Source of the DNA: Myxococcales bacterium
Lineage (GTDB): Bacteria; Myxococcota_A; Polyangia; Polyangiales; Polyangiaceae
NCBI GenBank assembly: GCA_016704525.1
Contig: JADIZX010000009.1
Location: forward strand, 42,625-106,624
DNA: 64,000 bases
Reading direction: 5' to 3'
Below, piece after piece: positions 46,442-62,127 of this stretch. The stretch's first letter is position 1. The number at the start of each line of letters is the position of its first letter. The notes beneath the pieces are model-generated. The model was not told the DNA's origin and did not search any database. It was given only the letters and a program-made list of their open reading frames with translations. A program made the position numbers and the translations under genes.

Positions 46442-46470
46442 GGCGTTGGTCTTTTCCCGACACACTCTAG

Positions 46471-47385
46471 CTAGAGCGACGTGTTCATCACCGCGCGCGT
46501 GACGGTGTCGGCCACGAGGGGGTACTTGTTCGCGCTCAAGGGCACCGGGAACGCCACCCCGGTGAGCTTGCAGCCGGCCTTCGCGCCGGCGAACTCCACC
46601 AGCCCGGTGCCGGGCGTGACATTGGAGATGAACACGTTGGCGCCGCGATCGCCGGCGCTGGCGGTGAGCGCGAGGTTCGGGTTGAAGGAGCCCGAGTCGG
46701 CGTACTGAACCACGGCCTCCGGGTGGCCCGGGATCGTCACGACGAAGCCGCTCGCGTCGCAGGTGGGCTCGGCCCTGTTGATCACCAGGTAGAAATGGGC
46801 CTTCGCGGCGTTGTAGGTGGCGTCGAAGGACCCCATGGTCGTCTTCGCGAACACGGAGACGTCGGTGTCGGTCCGCACGCCGGGGGGGAAGTTGTAGACG
46901 ACGCTCGCGCTCTTGTAGAAATCCGCGGGGTTCGTGGACGTCACGAGCAGGTAGTGGTTCACGCCAGTGGTCGGAGTGAAGCGCACGCGCGAGCCGGCGT
47001 AGGGGAGGGGCGCGCTCGTCCCCTGGCACGCGTCCACGAGCTGGATCGAGGTCTTGCCGCTGGGGTCGGTCCCGCTGTTCGCGGGGTTGAGCTTCACATC
47101 GGTCGCGCCCTTGTCGGTGCACGCGCCGGCCTCCGTAGGAGCGTCGGGCGAGGCGTCGACTGGCGGGGGTGCATCGGGCGTGGCAGCGTCCGTCGCCGTC
47201 GCTGACGCGTCGGGGGTCGGCGTGGTGGTCGTCGTCGTCGCCGTCGTCGTGGTCGTCGTGGTCGGCGCGGGGCCCGCGTCGGTCGCGGCCGGATCGCTGC
47301 TGCAGGCGCCGAGGGGCGCGAGGGGCGCGATCGCGCCGACGGCGAGGAGGGCGAGCAGCGGACGCTTCAGGGTGAAGTTGTGCAT
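46471..47385 (-). CDS. Secreted lipoprotein with poly-Thr linker
   Basis: Lipobox LAPLGACSS. The run TTTTTTTATTTTTTPTP is encoded by GTC/GTG-rich repeats. Cys-containing C-terminal domain. Confidence 0.6.
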   Translation of the reverse strand: MHNFTLKRPLLALLAVGAIAPLAPLGACSSDPAATDAGPAPTTTTTTTATTTTTTPTPDASATATDAATPDAPPPVDASPDAPTEAGACTDKGATDVKLNPANSGTDPSGKTSIQLVDACQGTSAPLPYAGSRVRFTPTTGVNHYLLVTSTNPADFYKSASVVYNFPPGVRTDTDVSVFAKTTMGSFDATYNAAKAHFYLVINRAEPTCDASGFVVTIPGHPEAVVQYADSGSFNPNLALTASAGDRGANVFISNVTPGTGLVEFAGAKAGCKLTGVAFPVPLSANKYPLVADTVTRAVMNTSL

Positions 47386-47561
47386 GAGGCCTAGCTAGGG
47401 GGGGGCGAGTGAAGGTGGGTACAAGCATACGCGGCCGAGGCGGAGAGGCAACCGAACATCGAGCGCCCGCGAGGAGCGGCGAACGCAGCGATGCGAGGCG
47501 GGCCGGGCGCGGCGAGCTTGGAGATTGCGTCACGCCTCGCGCGGCGCTACGAGGTCCGGGG

Positions 47562-50125: not shown

Positions 50126-50292
50126 CAGCCCGTCGAGAGGCACGCCGCTGCGCGTCGTGCGACCGCGCTGAGCGCGCAAACGTGGCGCCGGCGCGCGCGA
50201 CGAATGTGAGCGAACGGACCCCGCGGAGGCCCCTGCGCGGCACAACAAAGCCTGGGCGGTGCCGGCTCGCGCGTGCCATCCTTCCCCCCGTC

Positions 50293-51842: not shown

Positions 51843-53099
51843 TTAGAAGTGCTGGGTGATCCCGAACTGCGCGAACCAGGTCGCGATCGGGTGATGGATC
51901 CGTGCGACGTCGACGCGCAGCAGGGTGTCGACGAGCGCTGTCGGGAGGAGGCGCAGGCCGGCGCCGGTCGACCACGCCGTCATCGCCGGGGTGGAGGCTC
52001 CGCGCGCGTCCATCGGCTCGAACACCGCCGCGTCCGTAAACAGCACGCCTTGCACGTACCAGCGGCGCGCGATCTCGATGGCGTGTCGAACCTCCAGGTT
52101 GGCATACGCCTGCGACCGATTCCGGTAGAGCGAGTCGGGCAGACCTCGCACGCCCGCCTGGCTGCCGAGCAGGGCGCTGTGGTTCGGGTTCCCGCCGTTC
52201 ACCGCGCTCGCGCTCGCATTGAGCATGAGAACGGTCTTGTTCCCCAGCGGCAGCCCCGCGATCGCCTTGGCCCTGAGCTCATGCCGAGGTTCGGCCGGTC
52301 CGACGAAGATGCCGGGCCGCAGCTCGAGCGCCGCGCGGAAGCCCCGGGGAGTGAGGTCGTTCCAGGTATACCGGTCATAGACAAGCTCGCTCGTCGTACC
52401 GAGGTAGGTGCCGTCGCGTGGCTGCGAGGGCCCGGACGCGCCGGTGAGGGTCTCTTGATAGGCGTTCAGCTGAAACTCGTATCGCCACTTCGTCGTGTAG
52501 AACGAGGGCGAGAGAAACTCCACCTCCGCGCCCAGGCGGTTTCGCTGCCACGTGTGTTGCGCGTCCGCACCCTCGAAACGGAAGCCGGAGCCTGCGTAGT
52601 AGATCTCCTGCTCGCGCGCCCAGCTGCGCGGGCGGTACGGGTGCTCGTGGAGCCAGAGGATGAAGTTGAGGCCTCGCTCACTGTAGCTCGCCTTTCCACC
52701 CAGGCGCGTCCCGTGGCCGTCCACGTCATGCTGAATCGCACCGAGCGTGAGCTTCGAGTCGGCCAGCGTCTTGCCCGTGGAGAGATCGAAGATCGGTGAG
52801 AGGGTGAACTTCCTGCGGACGCGGACGAGCAGCGTCGTGCCCGTGTGGTCGACCTCGACCTGGTCGAAGAGCGCGAGGGTCCTGATACGTCGCCGCAGCT
52901 CGACGAGCTCGGCGCCAGTGAACGACGAAGGCAGCGGCCTCGGCAGCAGCTCGCTGATCGTCTCTGGCTCGGTCTTCTCCAGACCTTCGCTCCGCAGGGT
53001 CTCGATCGCGTAGGTGGCGGACGGGTCGAGGTCAGCCCCCGCGGGGGTCGCGTACATCAGCGAGGCGAGTCCACACGCGAGGAGGAGTGGACGCTTCAT
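51843..53099 (-). CDS. Outer-membrane beta-barrel protein of the bacterial surface antigen (Omp85/ShlB-like) family
   Basis: Signal peptide. POTRA-like N-terminal region. C-terminal barrel with alternating residues ending in an aromatic residue (…GITQHF). Its start overlaps the BlaR1-like gene stop. Confidence 0.6.
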   Translation of the reverse strand: MKRPLLLACGLASLMYATPAGADLDPSATYAIETLRSEGLEKTEPETISELLPRPLPSSFTGAELVELRRRIRTLALFDQVEVDHTGTTLLVRVRRKFTLSPIFDLSTGKTLADSKLTLGAIQHDVDGHGTRLGGKASYSERGLNFILWLHEHPYRPRSWAREQEIYYAGSGFRFEGADAQHTWQRNRLGAEVEFLSPSFYTTKWRYEFQLNAYQETLTGASGPSQPRDGTYLGTTSELVYDRYTWNDLTPRGFRAALELRPGIFVGPAEPRHELRAKAIAGLPLGNKTVLMLNASASAVNGGNPNHSALLGSQAGVRGLPDSLYRNRSQAYANLEVRHAIEIARRWYVQGVLFTDAAVFEPMDARGASTPAMTAWSTGAGLRLLPTALVDTLLRVDVARIHHPIATWFAQFGITQHF

Positions 53100-53917
53100 G
53101 GGCTTCCCGCGAGGATCGCGACGTACGGCGCGGACGCGACGACCCCGAAGACGAACGCGGCGATCGCGAGGCTCACCGCGAAGGGCGCCAGGAACGAACG
53201 GCGCCCCTCGGGGTGCGGCGCCGGTGGGGAGAGCAACCGGCGGACACGGATCTCGAGGAGCGTCGCGTCGTCTGCCAGGGCCGCCCCCGCCCTGGTCCGC
53301 CCCTGGGCAAGGCTCGCCGCCTTGACGAGGGCGCTCGCGAGGTCGGCCGCGTCGACGTTCGGGTCCTGGACGGCCTCGTCATCGCGCGCGAGCTCGAGCG
53401 CCGCGAGCCAGGCGCGCTGTCGGAGTCGTGGGCGAGAGAAGGGCCATTGGAGATCCGTCAGGAGCTGCACGATCCAGATCCAGCGCGGATCGCAGTGACG
53501 GACGTGCGCCTCCTCGTGAGCCATCACGGCACGGAGCTCGCCGGGGCGCAGCATCGCGAGCAGCTCCGCGCTGAGCTTGACCGTGGGACGGAACAGACCG
53601 ACGGTCAGCGCCGGCCCCTCGACCTCGGCGAACACCGCGAGGACGGCCCGCACGCCCGCGCGTAGCCATACGAGTCCAAAAGGCACCGCGGCGATGAGGC
53701 GCGTGACGTTCAATCCCTGCGGGCCCTCGGGATCGGCGACCGCAAAGCCGAGCAGGACGAACAACGGCAGCGACGCGGGCAGCGCTGGAAGCCAGAGACG
53801 GCGCCACGCGACTCGCTCCCCCGCATCCGGCGGAGTGGGCACGAGCGCCCCGAAGAGCCATATGAGCGCGCCGCTCAGGAGGACGATGAGCAGCTCCGCG
53901 ACTTCGTCACGATCCAC
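53096..53917 (-). CDS. BlaR1-type M56 family membrane metalloprotease signal transducer
   Basis: Four TM segments with the HExxH zinc motif (AVMAHEEAHVRH) in the cytoplasmic loop. Overlaps the blaI stop. Confidence 0.75.
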   Translation of the reverse strand: MDRDEVAELLIVLLSGALIWLFGALVPTPPDAGERVAWRRLWLPALPASLPLFVLLGFAVADPEGPQGLNVTRLIAAVPFGLVWLRAGVRAVLAVFAEVEGPALTVGLFRPTVKLSAELLAMLRPGELRAVMAHEEAHVRHCDPRWIWIVQLLTDLQWPFSRPRLRQRAWLAALELARDDEAVQDPNVDAADLASALVKAASLAQGRTRAGAALADDATLLEIRVRRLLSPPAPHPEGRRSFLAPFAVSLAIAAFVFGVVASAPYVAILAGSP

Positions 53918-54293
53918 GACGACTCCTCCGGCGGGCGGCGATCTCCTCGGCGAGACGGTCGAGCAGGGCGGGATCGTACGTCTCGACCGCGTCGACGAGC
54001 CTGGCCACCGCGGGCTCGGGATCGCCTCCGAAGATGCGGCTCACCAGGTCGCGAACGCGTGAGCGCTCCACGGCGCGTTCCGGCCTCGCAGGTCGAAACA
54101 CGAGCGCCCTGCCGTCCCGCTCGCGGGTCACGAACCCCTTCTTGTGGAGCCGATCGAGGACGGTCGAGATGGTCGTGTAGGCGAGCCCTCGTGGCACGCC
54201 GACTCGCTCGTGCACCTCGCGCACGGTGCACGTGCCAAGCTGCCAAACGGCGGAGAGGATCTCGTGCTCTTGCTCACCCAGCGTCGACGTCAT
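53907..54293 (-). CDS. BlaI/MecI/CopY family transcriptional repressor
   Basis: Winged-helix Penicillinase_R family (EILSAVWQLGTCTVREVHERV...GLAYTTISTVLDRLHKKGFV). 128 aa from the Met at MTSTLGEQ. Confidence 0.8.
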   Translation of the reverse strand: MTSTLGEQEHEILSAVWQLGTCTVREVHERVGVPRGLAYTTISTVLDRLHKKGFVTRERDGRALVFRPARPERAVERSRVRDLVSRIFGGDPEPAVARLVDAVETYDPALLDRLAEEIAARRRSRRGS

Positions 54294-54314
54294 GTTGGGT
54301 TCAGCGTCTACTAC

Positions 54315-54350
54315 TACATCTGTAGAATGAGTCAACTACACGTGTAGAAG
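54315..54350 (-). promoter_or_regulatory. Two TACA-N2-TGTA dyads (BlaI/MecI-type operators) overlapping a TTGACT -35-like hexamer upstream of blaI
   Basis: On the minus strand: TTCTACACGTGTAG-TTGACT-CATTCTACAGATGTAG...ATG. Dyads TACACGTGTA and TACAGATGTA lie 25-55 bp upstream of the start. Confidence 0.6.
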
Positions 54351-54384
54351 GTGGGCGCCATCCAGCGCGCAGGCCATCGCCCGC

Positions 54385-55299
54385 TCAGGCTCGAGGTCGG
54401 GCCGAGAGCACGGAGGGTCCCTGCAGCACGCGCTCGCTGTCTCCCTCGATCGCCCTCACCCAGGCCTCCCAGCGAATGGGCTGGCGTGCGAAGACGAGCT
54501 CCTCCGCGGTCACGCTCGGGTGCTCGCCCTCCGCGCGGCCCCCCCTCACGACCGGCGCGAGAGAGCCGGTGCCACGGAGATCGTAGACGAGCTCCGTCCG
54601 AAAGCCCTCCTCGGGCCAGACGATGAGCCCCTCGTCCGCGATGTCATAGCGGGCCCCCTCTCCGATGAGCGCCTCGATCTGCTCGCGCACGAGATCGACC
54701 GCCGCGAGCTTGTAGAGCCCAGACAAGACCGTCTCCATGATCGCCCGCTGTTCGGGCGAAAGGACCGCGAAGAAGCCCGGCTCGCCCACGCTCGCGACGA
54801 GCCAGCCCGACTGCTCCTCGAAGTGAAGCCACGCCACGTCGCTGGCTTCCCGCTCACCCTGTTCATGGGGCGACGCGCGCAGCTCGAGGCCGACGCGGAT
54901 TCGGTTCGATCCGACCCTCACCGCGTGCACGAGGACCTCGCCCGAGGTCCACCGCCGGACACGACGCAGGAGCCCCGCGAGCTCACGCTCGACGAACGTC
55001 GTGAGACCGCGCTCGACCTCGCGGACTCCCTCTCGGTGCGCGTTCACCGAGCGCGCCCCACGTCGCGCCGCGAGCCTCAGCTTCGCGAAGAGCTTCGGGA
55101 CCGTGCCCGAGTGAAAGCCGACCACGAGCAAGCCGTTCATCGTCTCGCCGTGATGGCCAATCCGAACAGGCTCGAGCGACTCGGCGCGATTGTGTGCGTA
55201 GAGCTCCCAGTTCTCGTTGAGCTCCCACACCAAGAAGCCGAAGACGCCGGGCAGCAGGAACACCGTGGTGCCCGCGACGGTGTTCGCCACGACGGCCCC
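54385..55299 (-). CDS. C-terminal ~300-aa continuation of the same membrane protein in the +1 frame (possible frameshift or pseudogene)
   Basis: Protein-like sequence (TVFLLPGVFGFLVWELNENWELYAHNR...) begins exactly where the upstream frame degenerates. The two frames switch at a C5 (G5 on the coding strand) homopolymer at ~55296-55300. Confidence 0.45.
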   Translation of the reverse strand, partial: GAVVANTVAGTTVFLLPGVFGFLVWELNENWELYAHNRAESLEPVRIGHHGETMNGLLVVGFHSGTVPKLFAKLRLAARRGARSVNAHREGVREVERGLTTFVERELAGLLRRVRRWTSGEVLVHAVRVGSNRIRVGLELRASPHEQGEREASDVAWLHFEEQSGWLVASVGEPGFFAVLSPEQRAIMETVLSGLYKLAAVDLVREQIEALIGEGARYDIADEGLIVWPEEGFRTELVYDLRGTGSLAPVVRGGRAEGEHPSVTAEELVFARQPIRWEAWVRAIEGDSERVLQGPSVLSARPRA

Positions 55300-57806
55300 C
55301 GGAGAGGGACGAGGGGCGTCCGCATCGCCTCGAGGAGGGTCGGGGCCATCGGGAGCAAGATCTTGTGCGAGACCGTGACGACCGGAAAATGTTTGATCGG
55401 GTTCACCTGCGGCTCGATGAGCAGGTTCACGTACACACGCACGAGGTAGGTCACGAAGAACCACACGAGCCCGAACGCGCCCTTCATGACGACGGCGAGG
55501 GTGCCCTGCCCGTCCCGGAAGGTGAGCCACTCGTCGACCGTGTAGATGCCCCGCTCCACGCGCTCGACGGCGCGCCGAGAGACATCGAGCGCGAGCGCGA
55601 CGAGCCCTGGGATCACGTGGCGCCGAAGGTTACCAATGCCGCGCAGGACGAGGTCGCTCGCCGACTCCTCCATCCGCGCGCCGAACGGGGTCCCGAAGAA
55701 GAGCGCCGCGACGACGAAGACGCCACCGGCCGCCGCCGCGCTGCCCGGAGCGGCGAGACCGTGACGCCGGGCGAACAGGAAACCGGGCGCCCCGAGGACG
55801 AGCGGCTTCAGCACCAACCGCGAGAAGAGCGCGAAGGGCGCGCTGCGAAGGAAGGCCTTCACGACGGGGCGGCTGAGGACCCACGAGGGAATGCCCACGA
55901 AGACGGTCCGCACCGCGGAGCCCGCAGAGGACAGCGCGCCGAGCGCGGCCCGCCGAAAGGGGAGACTGTGAAGCAGTCCATAGACGATGAGCGCCACCAC
56001 GGCCATTGAGAGGGTGGTGCGAATCGGAACGTGCGGATGACCGACTTTCTTGCCTATCCCGTGGGCCAGGTGCTGGAGAGCTTCGAGGAAGACGAACGCC
56101 GCGAGCAGGGGGATGACGGCGTGCAACGTGATCTTGCGGCCAAGAGAGGTACCAAAGGCCACTCCGCTCGCCTTCTGCAGCCCCCGAAGATAGACCTCGC
56201 CGGGTCGGTACACGCCATCGAGGCGAAGCGACAGCTGCCGATCCGCGCGGAGCAGCGCGTCCCCGCCGGTCAAGGCGGCGAGGGTGAGATTCCCCATCTT
56301 GAGGTTGCTCCGAGAGAGCGCGTCGCGAAGCTCTGACAGCCCCAGGAATCCCCGTTCCAAGATCTGGTCCAAGATCTCCGCGCAGAGCTTCTCTCGCGCG
56401 ACCTCCTCCGGCACGTTGGAGGGGCGCAAGCCGACCTCGTCGAGCACCGCTGTGAGGACCGGGAGGACCGAGCGCTCCACGTTCGTTCGAGCGCGGGAGA
56501 CGGCCGAGCGAAAGGTCGTCTCCAGGTCGCGCCTGTCGCCCGCCCCGATCTCGGCGCGGTGCGAGGTCACGAACGCGTGATGGAGGCGGCGCGCGATCCT
56601 GACGCGCGTGGCCATCGGCAGCGGACGCACGATCCGGCGTCGAAAGCCGGACGTCACCCAGGTGATCACGTCGACCGCGCGGCGCTCGCGCTCATGCTCC
56701 ACGCAGGCCTTCTGGAGGTCGAAGAGGACCCTCGCCTCGAGCGACCGCGGTGACCATGCGCCCGCCGCCCGCTCGGCGAGCGGCGCGAGGGTGCGCTCCC
56801 ACTCCGCCGCTATGGGGCCCGCCGGGCCCGCCTGCTCCGCCGGGTCGTCGTGCTCGGGTCGGAGCGCGGCCACGAGGCGAGCCGCGAGGGTCGAGAGGTC
56901 GGCGGTCGCGCCCGCGCGCGCTTCGGGAGTATCCAGCTGGAGCTGCAAGATCGCGGCGCGTGCGTGGTTCCCGTCGCTCCTGACGCGTTCGGCGAGCGCC
57001 CGGAGCACCCCGACGCGCGCCCCGGCTTGGGCCGCCGCGCGAGCGTCCCCGGCGAGCACCCGGCCGCTCTGCCGACGAGGCTCGCCGTCGCGCTCATCGC
57101 GCGGTGCGGGCGGCGCCCCCGCGGGACGCGAGCGGGCGAGCAGCGCGGCCGCGTCGAGCTCGAGGGCGAGCGCAGCTTCGACACGCGCCGTGTCCTCGAG
57201 GGTGGGGAAATACTTCGCGAGGTCTTGGGCCGCGAAGTGCCGCAGCTCGAGGAAGAAGGCGGCAAACTCGATATAGGCCTCCGCGTCGTCCCCTGGCGAA
57301 AACAGGAGGTGCTCGCCCTCGAGGACGGCGCGTATTTCGTCGAACTCGGTCTGACCGATTTGGTCAATCTTCGCCTTGAGCTCCGCGCTCCCCAGCGCGC
57401 CGCTTCGCACGCGGCTCTCGAGCTCGGCGTGCACGTGGCCATGGAACGCCGCCCGCCAAACGGCAGGGGCTCGATCGAGCTCCGGGAGGTCTGGCCGGGC
57501 GACGAGGATCACGCTCTCCGGGAGCTCGGCGACGCCGAGGTCCTCGAGACGGACGAGGCCCTCGAGGGCGGCGCGCGGCAGGACGATCACGTGCCCGTGC
57601 GGGACCTGGAGGCCCATGCCCGTGATTCCCCGATAGCGCTTCACCACGCGGCGCACGAGCCTCGCGTCCGCGACGACGGCCCGCGCCGTAGCCGCCTGCG
57701 TGGGCCCCCCTCGCCGCTCGGCGCCGTCGTCCGAAGGCGTGTCGACCATGGCCCACTCTACCGCGAAGACGCGAGTCATCGCAGCTCGCGGCGCGGCGGC
57801 GCGCAC
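55137..57806 (-). CDS. Large polytopic membrane protein, N-terminal ~830-aa fragment (frame breaks at ~55300)
   Basis: Long ORF with multiple TM helices in its C-terminal half and no recognisable catalytic motifs. Sequence quality collapses into Ser/Cys/Arg junk for the last ~54 codons. Confidence 0.55.
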   Translation of the reverse strand: MRAAAPRAAMTRVFAVEWAMVDTPSDDGAERRGGPTQAATARAVVADARLVRRVVKRYRGITGMGLQVPHGHVIVLPRAALEGLVRLEDLGVAELPESVILVARPDLPELDRAPAVWRAAFHGHVHAELESRVRSGALGSAELKAKIDQIGQTEFDEIRAVLEGEHLLFSPGDDAEAYIEFAAFFLELRHFAAQDLAKYFPTLEDTARVEAALALELDAAALLARSRPAGAPPAPRDERDGEPRRQSGRVLAGDARAAAQAGARVGVLRALAERVRSDGNHARAAILQLQLDTPEARAGATADLSTLAARLVAALRPEHDDPAEQAGPAGPIAAEWERTLAPLAERAAGAWSPRSLEARVLFDLQKACVEHERERRAVDVITWVTSGFRRRIVRPLPMATRVRIARRLHHAFVTSHRAEIGAGDRRDLETTFRSAVSRARTNVERSVLPVLTAVLDEVGLRPSNVPEEVAREKLCAEILDQILERGFLGLSELRDALSRSNLKMGNLTLAALTGGDALLRADRQLSLRLDGVYRPGEVYLRGLQKASGVAFGTSLGRKITLHAVIPLLAAFVFLEALQHLAHGIGKKVGHPHVPIRTTLSMAVVALIVYGLLHSLPFRRAALGALSSAGSAVRTVFVGIPSWVLSRPVVKAFLRSAPFALFSRLVLKPLVLGAPGFLFARRHGLAAPGSAAAAGGVFVVAALFFGTPFGARMEESASDLVLRGIGNLRRHVIPGLVALALDVSRRAVERVERGIYTVDEWLTFRDGQGTLAVVMKGAFGLVWFFVTYLVRVYVNLLIEPQVNPIKHFPVVTVSHKILLPMAPTLLEAMRTPLVPLRGPSWRTPSRAPRCSCCPASSASWCGSSTRTGSSTHTIAPSRSSLFGLAITARR

Positions 57807-57842
57807 CGCCGAGCCGAGGCGAACGCTTGGACGCGCGCAAAC

Positions 57843-59243
57843 TTAGGCCCAGATCGTGCGCTCGAGCTCGTCCATGAGGGACGCGGCGAGCGCGGGAGAC
57901 GGCACCCCCGCTCGCTTCGCGAGCTCGGCCTCCGGCGCGACACGAAGCTCCGCCCGAAGCGCCGACACGGCCTCGGTCATCGCCCGACGGACGTCGTCGC
58001 GCTGGGTCCCGGTGAGGTTCCGGAGCGACCACCGGTGCAGGCGCCACGACAGCTCCGCGTGGCGGGTCTCGTCCGCGGCGATCGCGGACATCGCGGCGCG
58101 GATCGTGGGGTCTTCTGCGCGCGCGGCCTGCACATGCGCGACGACCGCGCCGTACGTCTCGCGCACGCACCCCTCGACCGCGTTCTCGCGCGCGACGGCG
58201 TTCAGTCCCCGAGCCCCCACGCCCTCGACGCGGGGGCGGAGAGGCGAGACCCCGTGGCGGCGCGCGAGCCGCGCGGTGACGCGTGCGTGCCGCACCTCGT
58301 CCCGAGCGGCGCGCTTCGCGCGACGAACGAGGCGCTGCGGCGCCCCGGCGCGCGCGAGCTCCCCCGCGAGCCTCCGGAAGGAGACGACGCTCGCGCCCTC
58401 GAGCTCGGCCGCGCGCGCGAAGAAGCGCCCCACGGAGGGCGCGCCCGCGGCGTCCGGCTGGGCGACGAGCCCCTCGGGGCGCCGGCCGATCGCGCACGGA
58501 TCCGCGGGCAGCGACTTTCGCGCGACCGGGGTCACGGTGCCGTCCGTGGCGACCTTCACCGAGACCTCCTCCTCGACGAAGCAGTTCGCGTAAGGGAACG
58601 ACAGGTCGTAGCCGGTGGCCGTCGCGGTCGCGCGCGGCACGAGGTTCGGGTACTTGGTGCTGCAGAGCGGACTGCCGCCTCCGAAGAAGCGAGACATGAG
58701 CCACGCCTCGCCCGGGGTGTCGATCGGTCCAAAGAGCGCCTTCGCCTCGGCGAGCGTCGACGCCTTGCCGACCGTGTCTCCCCGCGTGAACACGATGTAG
58801 GACGTCAGACACCCCTCCGGCGGCCCAGCCTGATTCTGGCGACACGACGCGGGATCGGCGGGCTCGGGCAAGATGCGCAGCGCCGCGAGGGCGGCTTGGC
58901 ACTTCGCGGGGTCCGTCGCCGTTCCGCACGGTGTGCCCGCACCCTCGCTCTGGCTCGCTTTCCATTGCGCCACGAGGCCCGCGTCCGGGAGTGGGCCGCC
59001 GTCGCCTTGGGGCGTCGTCGCGTCAATGGCCTCCCTCCTCGCGCCGATGTAGTCGACCGCGACGGGGAGGCGCACGTCTTCGAAGGTGGCGGGGGGCCGG
59101 CAGGGGCCGCCGGGTGTTCCGCCCTCGGACGTACCGCCGTCGGAGGTGCCGCCGTCGGACGTTGATCCGACCGACCCACACCCCGCGCCGAGGACAGCCA
59201 GCGCCACCCCACGAATGACCGTCGACAACGCGCGTCTTTGCAT
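57843..59243 (-). CDS. Lipoprotein with Gly/Ser/Thr/Asp repeat linker and C-terminal ferritin-like helical domain
   Basis: Lipobox LAVLGAGCGS. TSDGGTSDGGTSEGGT is encoded by a 15-bp tandem repeat at ~59118-59172. C-terminal helical region with E/H-rich pairs resembling the ferritin-like superfamily. Confidence 0.55.
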   Translation of the reverse strand: MQRRALSTVIRGVALAVLGAGCGSVGSTSDGGTSDGGTSEGGTPGGPCRPPATFEDVRLPVAVDYIGARREAIDATTPQGDGGPLPDAGLVAQWKASQSEGAGTPCGTATDPAKCQAALAALRILPEPADPASCRQNQAGPPEGCLTSYIVFTRGDTVGKASTLAEAKALFGPIDTPGEAWLMSRFFGGGSPLCSTKYPNLVPRATATATGYDLSFPYANCFVEEEVSVKVATDGTVTPVARKSLPADPCAIGRRPEGLVAQPDAAGAPSVGRFFARAAELEGASVVSFRRLAGELARAGAPQRLVRRAKRAARDEVRHARVTARLARRHGVSPLRPRVEGVGARGLNAVARENAVEGCVRETYGAVVAHVQAARAEDPTIRAAMSAIAADETRHAELSWRLHRWSLRNLTGTQRDDVRRAMTEAVSALRAELRVAPEAELAKRAGVPSPALAASLMDELERTIWA

Positions 59244-59392
59244 CCGCGCAGTATGCGGCACTTCGGATCTGCCGGCACGCGCGGAATCACGCGCCGCGGC
59301 GAACCCGCTCGCCGAGCTGACTTATCGACCGGCGAAGCGTGGGGGCGAGACAGAGACAAGGCGCCATGCCATCGCGCATCGCGCGGGGTCGC

Positions 59393-60771: not shown

Positions 60772-60840
60772 ACCCGCGCGAAACTTCATGTCCACGTCGG
60801 AGTATCGGTGGCGACCTGCACGTGTACCGCGCGTCACGCG

Positions 60841-61620
60841 TCACCGGTACGGTGGCCCCAGCACCTTGCCCCGATGAAAGCGGATCAGGCAGAACCGCTC
60901 CGCCGCGTGCCGCGTGGCCTCCGCGAGGCGCTCCTCCGCGCGGGCGCGAGGGTAGGTCCCAACGTGTGCGCGCCCCCGGTAATGCGTGGTCAACATGCGG
61001 TGGTAGGCGCGACGCCCAGGCAGGTCGAAGCCGTGCGCCAGGATGTGTAGGACGTCCTCCATGGTCGACGTGTCGTCGTTGAGGACGTACACGGCCACTT
61101 CCGCGTCTTCGACCTCCGCCTCCTCGGGCAGATCGTCCCTCGGCGACACGTCCAGAACGGCGCGGAGCGCGCATCCGGCGAGGAGCCGCGCGGTCTCGCC
61201 CTCGGTGGCCCCAAGCCCGGCGACCAGGTCTCCGCGCGACATGACGGTCGCGCCTCGACGACGGGTGCGCTCGAACGCGTGCGACAGCATGTGGCCGACC
61301 CTCGGCGACGGAGCGCCCGCTCGGGCCTCGGCCGCGACCGCGGGGGAGGCCAAGACGGGGAGCAGGGCCTCGCGTGCGGCCTCGACGGCCCCGGGCGTGC
61401 CGTCGCGCAGCCAAGCCTCAACGGCCTCGTCCTCGAGCGCCGCGAGCAGCACGCGCTCGGGCGTCGCGTGGAGCTGGTCGTAGCCGAGCGCGTCCCCTGC
61501 GGCCAGCTGGAGGATGACCCGCGTCTCGGGGGCGAGCGGGTAGTTCTCCCACGGATGCGCGCGCTCCTGACGGGGAAGCAAGCGCGAGAGCCACCGTGCG
61601 ACCCACTGGACGGCGTTCAT
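60841..61620 (-). CDS. ClpS-like Clp protease adaptor fused to an N-terminal Clp_N-like repeat region
   Basis: C-terminal ClpS core (VAVYVLNDDTSTMEDVLHILAHGFDL...HYRGRAHVGTY). N-terminal helical repeats resembling Clp_N. Start at Met MNAVQWVA. Confidence 0.65.
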   Translation of the reverse strand: MNAVQWVARWLSRLLPRQERAHPWENYPLAPETRVILQLAAGDALGYDQLHATPERVLLAALEDEAVEAWLRDGTPGAVEAAREALLPVLASPAVAAEARAGAPSPRVGHMLSHAFERTRRRGATVMSRGDLVAGLGATEGETARLLAGCALRAVLDVSPRDDLPEEAEVEDAEVAVYVLNDDTSTMEDVLHILAHGFDLPGRRAYHRMLTTHYRGRAHVGTYPRARAEERLAEATRHAAERFCLIRFHRGKVLGPPYR

Positions 61621-61701
61621 GGTTCGAAGTACGCGCGGCGCGCCGCCTTCTTCCCTGATCTCCCGCGCCGCTGCCTGCGGCCCGCGCGAGCTGACGATCA
61701 T

Positions 61702-62127
61702 TCAGTGGACAGTGCGTGGTGGCCCCAGCGCGACGATTGGGTTCTGTGGAAACGGAGCCGCGCGATGCGAGCTCGAGACGACGAGGACGGCAAGCCGCCC
61801 CGCGATCTCGAAGGTCGCAACCGTGGCGGGCGCGCCGAAGTAGCGGATCGGCAGGAGGTCGACGCCGCTGTCCGTGGCTTCCGAGCACGTTGACGATTGC
61901 GTCGGCGCTTCGACGTGGTGGAGCGAGGAGAGGGCCTTCTGATAGCTCTCTCCCGTTCTCGCCATCCTCGCCCGCACCGCGAGGATGGCGAAGCGGGCAG
62001 CGCCCAGCTCGTGATCCGCCATGTGCGCCGTGGCGGCGGCGTGGCCTGCCGCGCGGGCTACCTCGCGGGCGGCGGCGTCGGATGCGCTCCTGGCGGCTGC
62101 GTGTGCGGCGAAGGCTGCCTCCCGCGC
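61702..62127 (-). CDS. Hypothetical protein (weak call)
   Basis: The C-terminal ~90 aa of track ORF 61702..62463 are protein-like (ESYQKALSSLHHVEAPTQSS...). The N-terminal part overlaps the tandem repeat and is probably not coding. Start guessed at the internal Met. Confidence 0.3.
   Translation of the reverse strand, partial: AREAAFAAHAAARSASDAAAREVARAAGHAAATAHMADHELGAARFAILAVRARMARTGESYQKALSSLHHVEAPTQSSTCSEATDSGVDLLPIRYFGAPATVATFEIAGRLAVLVVSSSHRAAPFPQNPIVALGPPRTVH

Follow-up and report, generated by a model that had tools for sequence, protein, structure and literature searches.

A 64,000-nucleotide stretch of a metagenome-assembled genome (MAG) of a Myxococcales bacterium (GCA_016704525.1, contig JADIZX010000009.1, positions 42,625 to 106,624; hereafter the window) was analysed at a minus-strand gene for a large membrane protein whose reading frame is interrupted. 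The two overlapping open reading frames (ORFs) at this site, 55137..57806 (889 codons) and 54385..55530 (381 codons), are a single gene for a protein of 1,120 or 1,130 amino acids (aa), split by a frameshift. The lesion consists of two extra bases and is an ordinary one of an already known kind, private to one deposited MAG. It is best explained as a local consensus error, made during assembly or polishing of the source MAG, a reading that was given a probability of roughly 0.58.

The translations of the two ORFs join into one protein. The upper ORF, 55137..57806, encodes a plausible protein up to …MRTPLVPL and then runs into low-complexity nonsense (RGPSWRTPSRAPRCSCC…), and the lower ORF, 54385..55530, is nonsense up to …SPG and then continues as plausible protein (AVVANTVAGTTVFLLPGVFGF…), placing the switch of coding frame at 55296–55301. 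GC content at third codon positions (GC3) was 0.88–0.95 in phase 0 above ~55300; below that point the high values moved to phase 1 (0.82–0.90), the change being sharp and lying at 55290–55300. The 5′ 230 nt of the lower ORF (55300–55530) carried no coding signal in their own frame. A run of five C on the plus strand was found at exactly 55296–55300, where the original prediction had placed a CCCCC tract. From the overlap of the ORFs, their translations, the GC3 crossover and this run, the first observation, that two pieces of one protein switch frame at about 55296–55300, is therefore correct, and it is further borne out by homologues that are contiguous across the site. No other obvious frame switch was found in the window by the GC3 frame-plot heuristic, which is a crude method. 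Two starts are possible, ATG 57749 (the 1,120-aa call) and ATG 57779 (the 1,130-aa call), and both gene calls occur in near-identical loci.

The part upstream of the shift holds a helical, soluble N-domain together with the majority of the membrane helices, and its codons 1–816 show zero amino-acid differences from residues 1–816 of a near-identical homologue (P0001; 1,120 aa, ~100% identity to the repaired protein). The part stranded downstream carries the last membrane helices (LPGxFGFLxWE), the motifs IGHHGET and GFHSGTxPK, and an alpha/beta C-terminal domain, and it equals P0001 residues 817–1120 apart from K844N and K848E. Between them, the 54-residue nonsense tail, which contains …RGPSWRTPSR…, matches nothing in the protein family; the native peptide spanning the junction is TPLVPLGAVVANTVAGTTVFLLPGVFGFLVWELK. 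The coordinates of these parts are collected in Table 1.

To define the lesion, near-identical loci from other assemblies were aligned with the window. Two loci (L001 and L002) encode P0001 and seven more (L003–L010) were recovered through an identical neighbouring BlaI-like gene; L004 is the same contig as L001, and eight independent assemblies reach the junction (L001/L004, L002, L003 and L005–L009), namely GCA_963852875.1, GCA_016720545.1, GCA_035433285.1, two from ENA, one from JGI and two Logan read-run assemblies. DNA identity of the sibling loci to the window was 99.66–99.96%. In the multiple alignment, the junction read CTCTCGGGGCC (…PLGAVV…), with an intact protein, in all eight assemblies, and CTCTCCGGGGGCC in the window, which therefore carries two extra bases, at 55301–55300 (minus strand CTCTC[CG]GGGGCC, against CTCTCGGGGCC in the siblings). 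The change is compound, a neighbouring C having become CC and GGGG having become GGGGG, and which letters of the flanking C and G runs are counted as the extra ones is a matter of choice. It is the insertion that creates the plus-strand C5 and the shift of +2 (equivalent to −1); the native run is C4/G4, not C5.

The original prediction had taken the lesion for a one-base change in a C5 homopolymer, which does not hold, since the insertion is a compound +2 and the native run has four bases. The one-base repair that it proposed does restore the frame, yielding …PLRGAVV… where the relatives have …PLGAVV…; P0001 reads …TPLVPLGAVVANT… across the site, without the arginine. Nor is a C5 tract remarkable in itself, since C/G runs of five or more number 148 in the 64 kb of this 70%-GC DNA (2.3/kb). 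An insertion by tandem duplication or by slippage in a single run was ruled out, as two adjacent runs each gained one base, and a check for a templated or quasi-palindromic origin found no other copy in the window of the 12-mer across the insertion.

The +2 allele was thus seen in one of nine assemblies. Exact scans for either junction allele gave 0 matches in genome_contigs and metagenome_contigs, collections that also missed the known intact contigs; the scan pattern itself is valid, matching L001–L009, so that these contigs must be missing from the collections or masked in them. The window-private K844N/K848E haplotype likewise gave 0 matches in metagenome_contigs, with the same limit that known intact contigs were missed there too. 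Since the lesion is private to the window assembly and is not in any of eight near-identical ones, it is either an assembly error or a very recent knockout, and not a programmed frameshift.

Table 1. Parts of the split gene and changes private to the window (window coordinates).
Feature	Position	Strand	Basis
N-terminal in-frame part, codons 1–816 (1,120-aa form)	55302..57779	minus	Translation, high GC3; ends at L816 (CTC, 55304–55302)
Two extra bases, C and G on the minus strand	55300..55301	minus	Not in 8 independent near-identical assemblies
Out-of-frame tail, 54 unrelated codons (RGPSWRTPSRAPRCSCC…LAITARR), TGA stop 55137–55139	55137..55301	minus	Translation
C-terminal part in the −1 frame, G817–A1120 and stop 54385–54387	54385..55299	minus	Translation, GC3 0.82–0.90
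Two window-private non-synonymous substitutions, 55216 AAA->AAC (K844N) and 55206 AAG->GAG (K848E)	55206..55216	minus	Private among 9 assemblies

The truncated 870-aa product, including its nonsense tail, is identical to NCBI protein MBK6463121.1 (IPF92_19260, P0222; window 55137–57749, minus strand), and therefore the IPF92 MAG is the source of the window. MBK6463121.1 comes from a ‘Myxococcales bacterium’ MAG contig of 234,445 bp, belongs to the 90%-identity cluster of P0001, and was deposited as an ordinary hypothetical protein with no pseudogene flag; the sole record of the truncated product is the source MAG itself. It was reached through cluster membership, exact look-ups of the truncated product and of the window's 418-aa and 466-aa hypothetical proteins in the contig index having returned no entry; no paper was found under the assembly accession. 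This MAG presumably belongs to a long-read activated-sludge set, as its locus-tag and accession series matches that of IPQ09 (GCA_016720545.1). The activated-sludge MAGs of the GCA_0167… series are described as long-read assemblies and termed ‘composite population bins’ in a paper that uses them (PMC9765116), and homopolymer indels are described as the recognised residual error of Nanopore assemblies (PMC9262707).

Sibling assemblies were then compared over ~57 kb of the window. The short-read contigs, each sample having its own, were nearly identical to one another with all genes intact, and had no private indels or only in-frame ones, save for one intergenic +C in a C8 run of L002 (47406). 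The two other long-contig MAGs from the same population carried many private indels, each breaking different genes that are intact in the window and in the short-read contigs. GCA_016720545.1 (L001/L004/L092/L098) had 33 private indel events in 21 kb, which split the genes for a 1,474-aa kinase-AAA-TPR protein, a 572-aa DnaJ-TPR protein, a 332-aa NMT1 protein and the upstream 466-aa protein, and these indels typically lay 3–50 nt from private substitutions (L004; window-equivalent positions 50233/50230/50224 and 49579/49569/49529). GCA_963852875.1 (L003/L091/L097) had 5 private indels in that 21-kb stretch and more elsewhere, with a looser association between indels and substitutions (L003; ~90–270 nt, for example 25395 with 25488 and 25664).

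Only three changes in the 3.4-kb gene are private to the window, the +2 insertion, K844N and K848E, and all lie within 96 nt, the two substitutions following the insertion at distances of 85 and 95 nt. Both positions are conserved: of 79 homologues, 68 have K and 9 have N at position 844, while at position 848 there are 75 with K, R or N and none with E. If the substitutions were independent neutral hits that followed inactivation, they would both land within the first ~95 of the 915 nt beyond the insertion with a chance of ~0.01 by our own arithmetic, and the remaining ~800 nt of the downstream gene show zero decay.

The lesion is confined to the window assembly, is compound, lies close to further private changes and occurs in no relative. 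Because of these features, and because the same signature occurs in the sibling long-contig MAGs, a consensus error is favoured, with an origin that would lie in consensus calling and not in the cell. The organism’s true gene would then be a single 1,120- or 1,130-aa ORF reading …VPLGAVVANT… across the site; each of two adjacent short runs would have been given a spurious base (C->CC, GGGG->GGGGG), and miscalls at two positions 85–95 nt away would belong to the same stretch. The resulting +2 shift would end the annotated product after 54 nonsense codons and leave the last 304 codons as an orphan ORF. Like the indel errors of long-read (Nanopore-based) MAGs, this is a private indel at short G/C runs that splits a conserved gene beside private miscalls; it differs in being an insertion over two adjacent runs where the classic error is a single-run deletion, and in lying in an assembly that is otherwise clean over ~42 kb and whose sequencing platform is presumed.

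Several points weigh against a consensus error. Nanopore homopolymer errors are typically deletions, not insertions, and the presumed link of IPF92 to the long-read project comes from the accession and locus-tag series. The window is otherwise clean, with 0 private indels and 3 private substitutions over 4.4–40.3 kb and a single further private indel in the ~57 kb, at 46468, which is intergenic. The 46–61 kb stretch holds real-looking variation, including a mostly synonymous private cluster at 58236–58113, and a private substitution cluster is also borne by one short-read contig (L096). Finally, both substitutions near the insertion come after the shift, in a part of the gene on which constraint would be lost in a real null allele.

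Two of these sites can be described more closely. At 46468, a GG has been reduced to a single G, apparently at a point immediately beyond the stop of ORF 46474..47394. The cluster at 58113–58236 (minus strand, in ORF 57843..59261, the upstream 466-aa gene) comprises 20 private substitutions in 124 nt, of which 13 are synonymous and 6 non-synonymous, and being mostly synonymous it looks like a real divergent or recombinant patch, not random error.

The competing explanation, possible though held only tentatively, is a genuine, very recent loss-of-function allele, in which the 2-bp insertion truncates the protein after L816. The insertion may have belonged to a single multi-nucleotide event, of mutation or of repair, in which 55216 and 55206 changed as well, and the cell would make at most the 870-aa product, lacking the last membrane helices and the C-terminal domain. 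The accuracy of the window assembly elsewhere and the synonymous-biased strain divergence of the surrounding 46–61 kb, which looks real, are consistent with such an allele, as are the conserved residues hit by K844N and K848E beyond the point where constraint would go, and a gene that has no conserved partners and is probably dispensable. With one lesion in a gene that otherwise shares ~99.9% identity with the intact alleles of its conspecifics, and with the C-terminal 304 residues lost, the case resembles a recent frameshift pseudogene; it differs in that the allele is in no second assembly and is compound and clustered with two substitutions rather than an isolated slip. A non-duplicative compound +2 insertion would also be an unusual spontaneous mutation, the allele is confined to one of nine assemblies with its haplotype not found elsewhere, and beyond the three clustered changes the ~800 nt of sequence that would be unconstrained show no further decay. 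Moreover, the same combination of indel and substitutions breaks conserved genes in the sibling long-contig MAGs, where it is plainly artefactual.

The cautious list of alternatives in the original prediction was reasonable: a sequencing or assembly error and a recent inactivating mutation are both still live, and its third entry, a slippage-prone, phase-variable or programmed site, failed every test. Such a site would act by a ribosomal −1 slip on C-CGG-GGG or by polymerase slippage on C5/G5, giving full-length protein conditionally, and if tRNA-Gly slipped by −1 on G-GGG-G, the reading …PLRG-AVV… would formally be regained. No X-XXY-YYZ slippery heptamer was present in the zero frame at the shift point (CTC-CGG-GGG-CCG), where only a single-codon G-GGG slip is conceivable. 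The 96 nt downstream held no stimulatory structure (minimum free energy −35.3 kcal/mol, with a mean of −36.9 for shuffled sequences and z = +0.44; 134 of 200 shuffles folded as well as the real sequence), so neither the slippery context nor the downstream structure that had been suggested for checking was found, and no Rfam element matched at E ≤ 1 within 54000–58200.

The comparison with orthologues, also suggested there, showed a contiguous gene throughout. None of the 79 aligned full-length homologues is interrupted at the junction (G817 in 76 of 79), 79 of 80 genomic loci from other species hold a single ORF, and the best 150 of 2,729 representative clusters are single proteins of ~1,100 aa. 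The two-frame arrangement is conserved in none, the ORF being contiguous in the eight near-identical assemblies as well. With contiguous homologues, no heptamer, no RNA structure and no Rfam match, programmed frameshifting and phase variation were therefore rejected, and a recoding or phase-variable site is considered highly improbable.

Tract length gives the same answer. The tracts of known contingency loci typically have seven or more bases, far above the five here, and five-base runs occur at 2.3/kb in this DNA. No length series was seen: eight assemblies share one four-base allele and the window is longer by one base in each of two runs, which is not a simple change in run length. The likeness to phase variation in Neisseria, Haemophilus and Campylobacter is confined to a G/C run inside a membrane-protein gene at the frame change; the differences are a tract of five bases here and four in the other strains, the involvement of two runs, and one variant among nine assemblies. 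dnaX-type −1 frameshifting, which uses an A-AAA-AAG heptamer, an upstream Shine-Dalgarno-like element and a downstream stem-loop, shares only the frame arithmetic and the G-run with this site, which has neither heptamer nor stimulatory structure, is not conserved, and is uninterrupted in relatives. A real +2 insertion from which some full-length protein is still made by −1 tRNA-Gly slippage on the new C-CGG-GGG-C, that is, a nascent and unconserved recoding site, is likewise judged very unlikely.

Two separate abutting genes with independent starts would agree with the NCBI annotation of the source MAG, which lists the upstream piece as an ordinary 870-aa protein. This arrangement is nevertheless close to untenable: in every homologue one polypeptide runs through the junction, which lies inside a conserved membrane segment, the nominal 5′ end of the lower ORF (55300–55530) lacks coding signal in its own frame, and no family member has a match to the final 54 residues of the 870-aa product. 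No orthologue with a stop and a start at the junction was found among more than 150 examined.

The frameshift itself carries little weight, being either a flaw in a deposited MAG or the null allele of one strain, and MBK6463121.1 and the orphan C-terminal ORF should be read as one 1,120- or 1,130-aa gene. Three long-contig MAGs of one population each break different genes; frame breaks in such MAGs should be compared with sibling assemblies before they are read biologically.

The encoded protein family may matter more than the frameshift. A search with the repaired protein returned 82 database proteins, essentially all contiguous and of ~1,050–1,170 aa. Pfam-A, NCBIfam and PADLOC gave 0 families at E ≤ 1, so that the description of the protein as having no recognisable family is true for these resources; a large conserved family does exist, with 2,729 clusters at 50% identity (E ≤ 1e-3), 1,606 of them at E ≤ 1e-30, and with matches in at least 579 genomic stretches of a collection that holds one genome per species. 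The 80 loci kept from these stretches for the locus survey are largely from Myxococcota (Polyangia, Haliangiales/Kofleriaceae) and Planctomycetota (Pirellulales, Gemmataceae, Isosphaeraceae, Planctomycetaceae), with a few MAGs labelled only ‘Proteobacteria’ or ‘bacterium’ and one complete genome (Planctomycetales bacterium 10988, a culturable carrier; CP043547.1, locus L043). No conserved gene neighbourhood was found in the 80 loci, of which only 15 have a Ser/Thr kinase downstream; the remaining recurrent ‘neighbours’ are antisense ORFs inside the gene.

An AlphaFold2 model from the 79-sequence alignment (mean predicted local distance difference test score 91, predicted template modelling score 0.88) comprises a helical soluble N-terminal part (~20–530), a long membrane-helix bundle (~535–850) and an alpha/beta C-terminal domain (~870–1100). 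Hydropathy analysis gave at least five strong membrane segments, with the frameshift at the start of the last one; together these bear out the predicted long soluble N-terminal region and membrane helices. The invariant motifs, which are His/Glu-rich, include WRxxFHGxVH (98–107), EPxVNPIKHFPVVTVxHK (779–796), LPGxFGFLxWE (832–842), IGHHGET (863–869) and GFHSGTxPK (877–885); the histidines H51, H103 and H107 are invariant. A profile search of the PDB found no sequence relative (best E = 0.016, over 58 residues of a designed protein), and Foldseek against the PDB found no convincing structural neighbour (best E = 0.64). Over ~120 residues the membrane region can be superposed on a 5-helix bundle, at 5% identity and across ~10% of the 1,120-residue model, a resemblance of helix packing only. 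The protein belongs to a large uncharacterised family of ~1,100-aa membrane proteins with a confidently predicted structure that has no solved relative, and would be a reasonable target for structural and functional work.

Directly downstream of the split gene, three minus-strand genes at 51843–54297 apparently make up one operon. Their products are a repressor of the BlaI/Penicillinase_R type (128 aa), a BlaR1-like peptidase of family M56 (273 aa) and a hypothetical protein of 418 aa, and the arrangement is not conserved beside homologues in other species. The gene for the 418-aa protein (ORF 51843..53099, minus strand) carries a window-private pair of substitutions 3 nt apart, at 52879 and 52882, in adjacent codons (K73R and N74T); the pair resembles that at 55206/55216 in consisting of one A->G and one A->C. 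On the other side, a ~1.2-kb segment at 60774–61972 (L003 2165–3454) is present in the window and in GCA_963852875.1, with only 218 nt in its place in five other assemblies, and so is a strain-variable cassette; the gene calls in L003 for this segment are an Imm5_like gene (142 aa) and a gene with a ClpS/Clp_N domain (286 aa).

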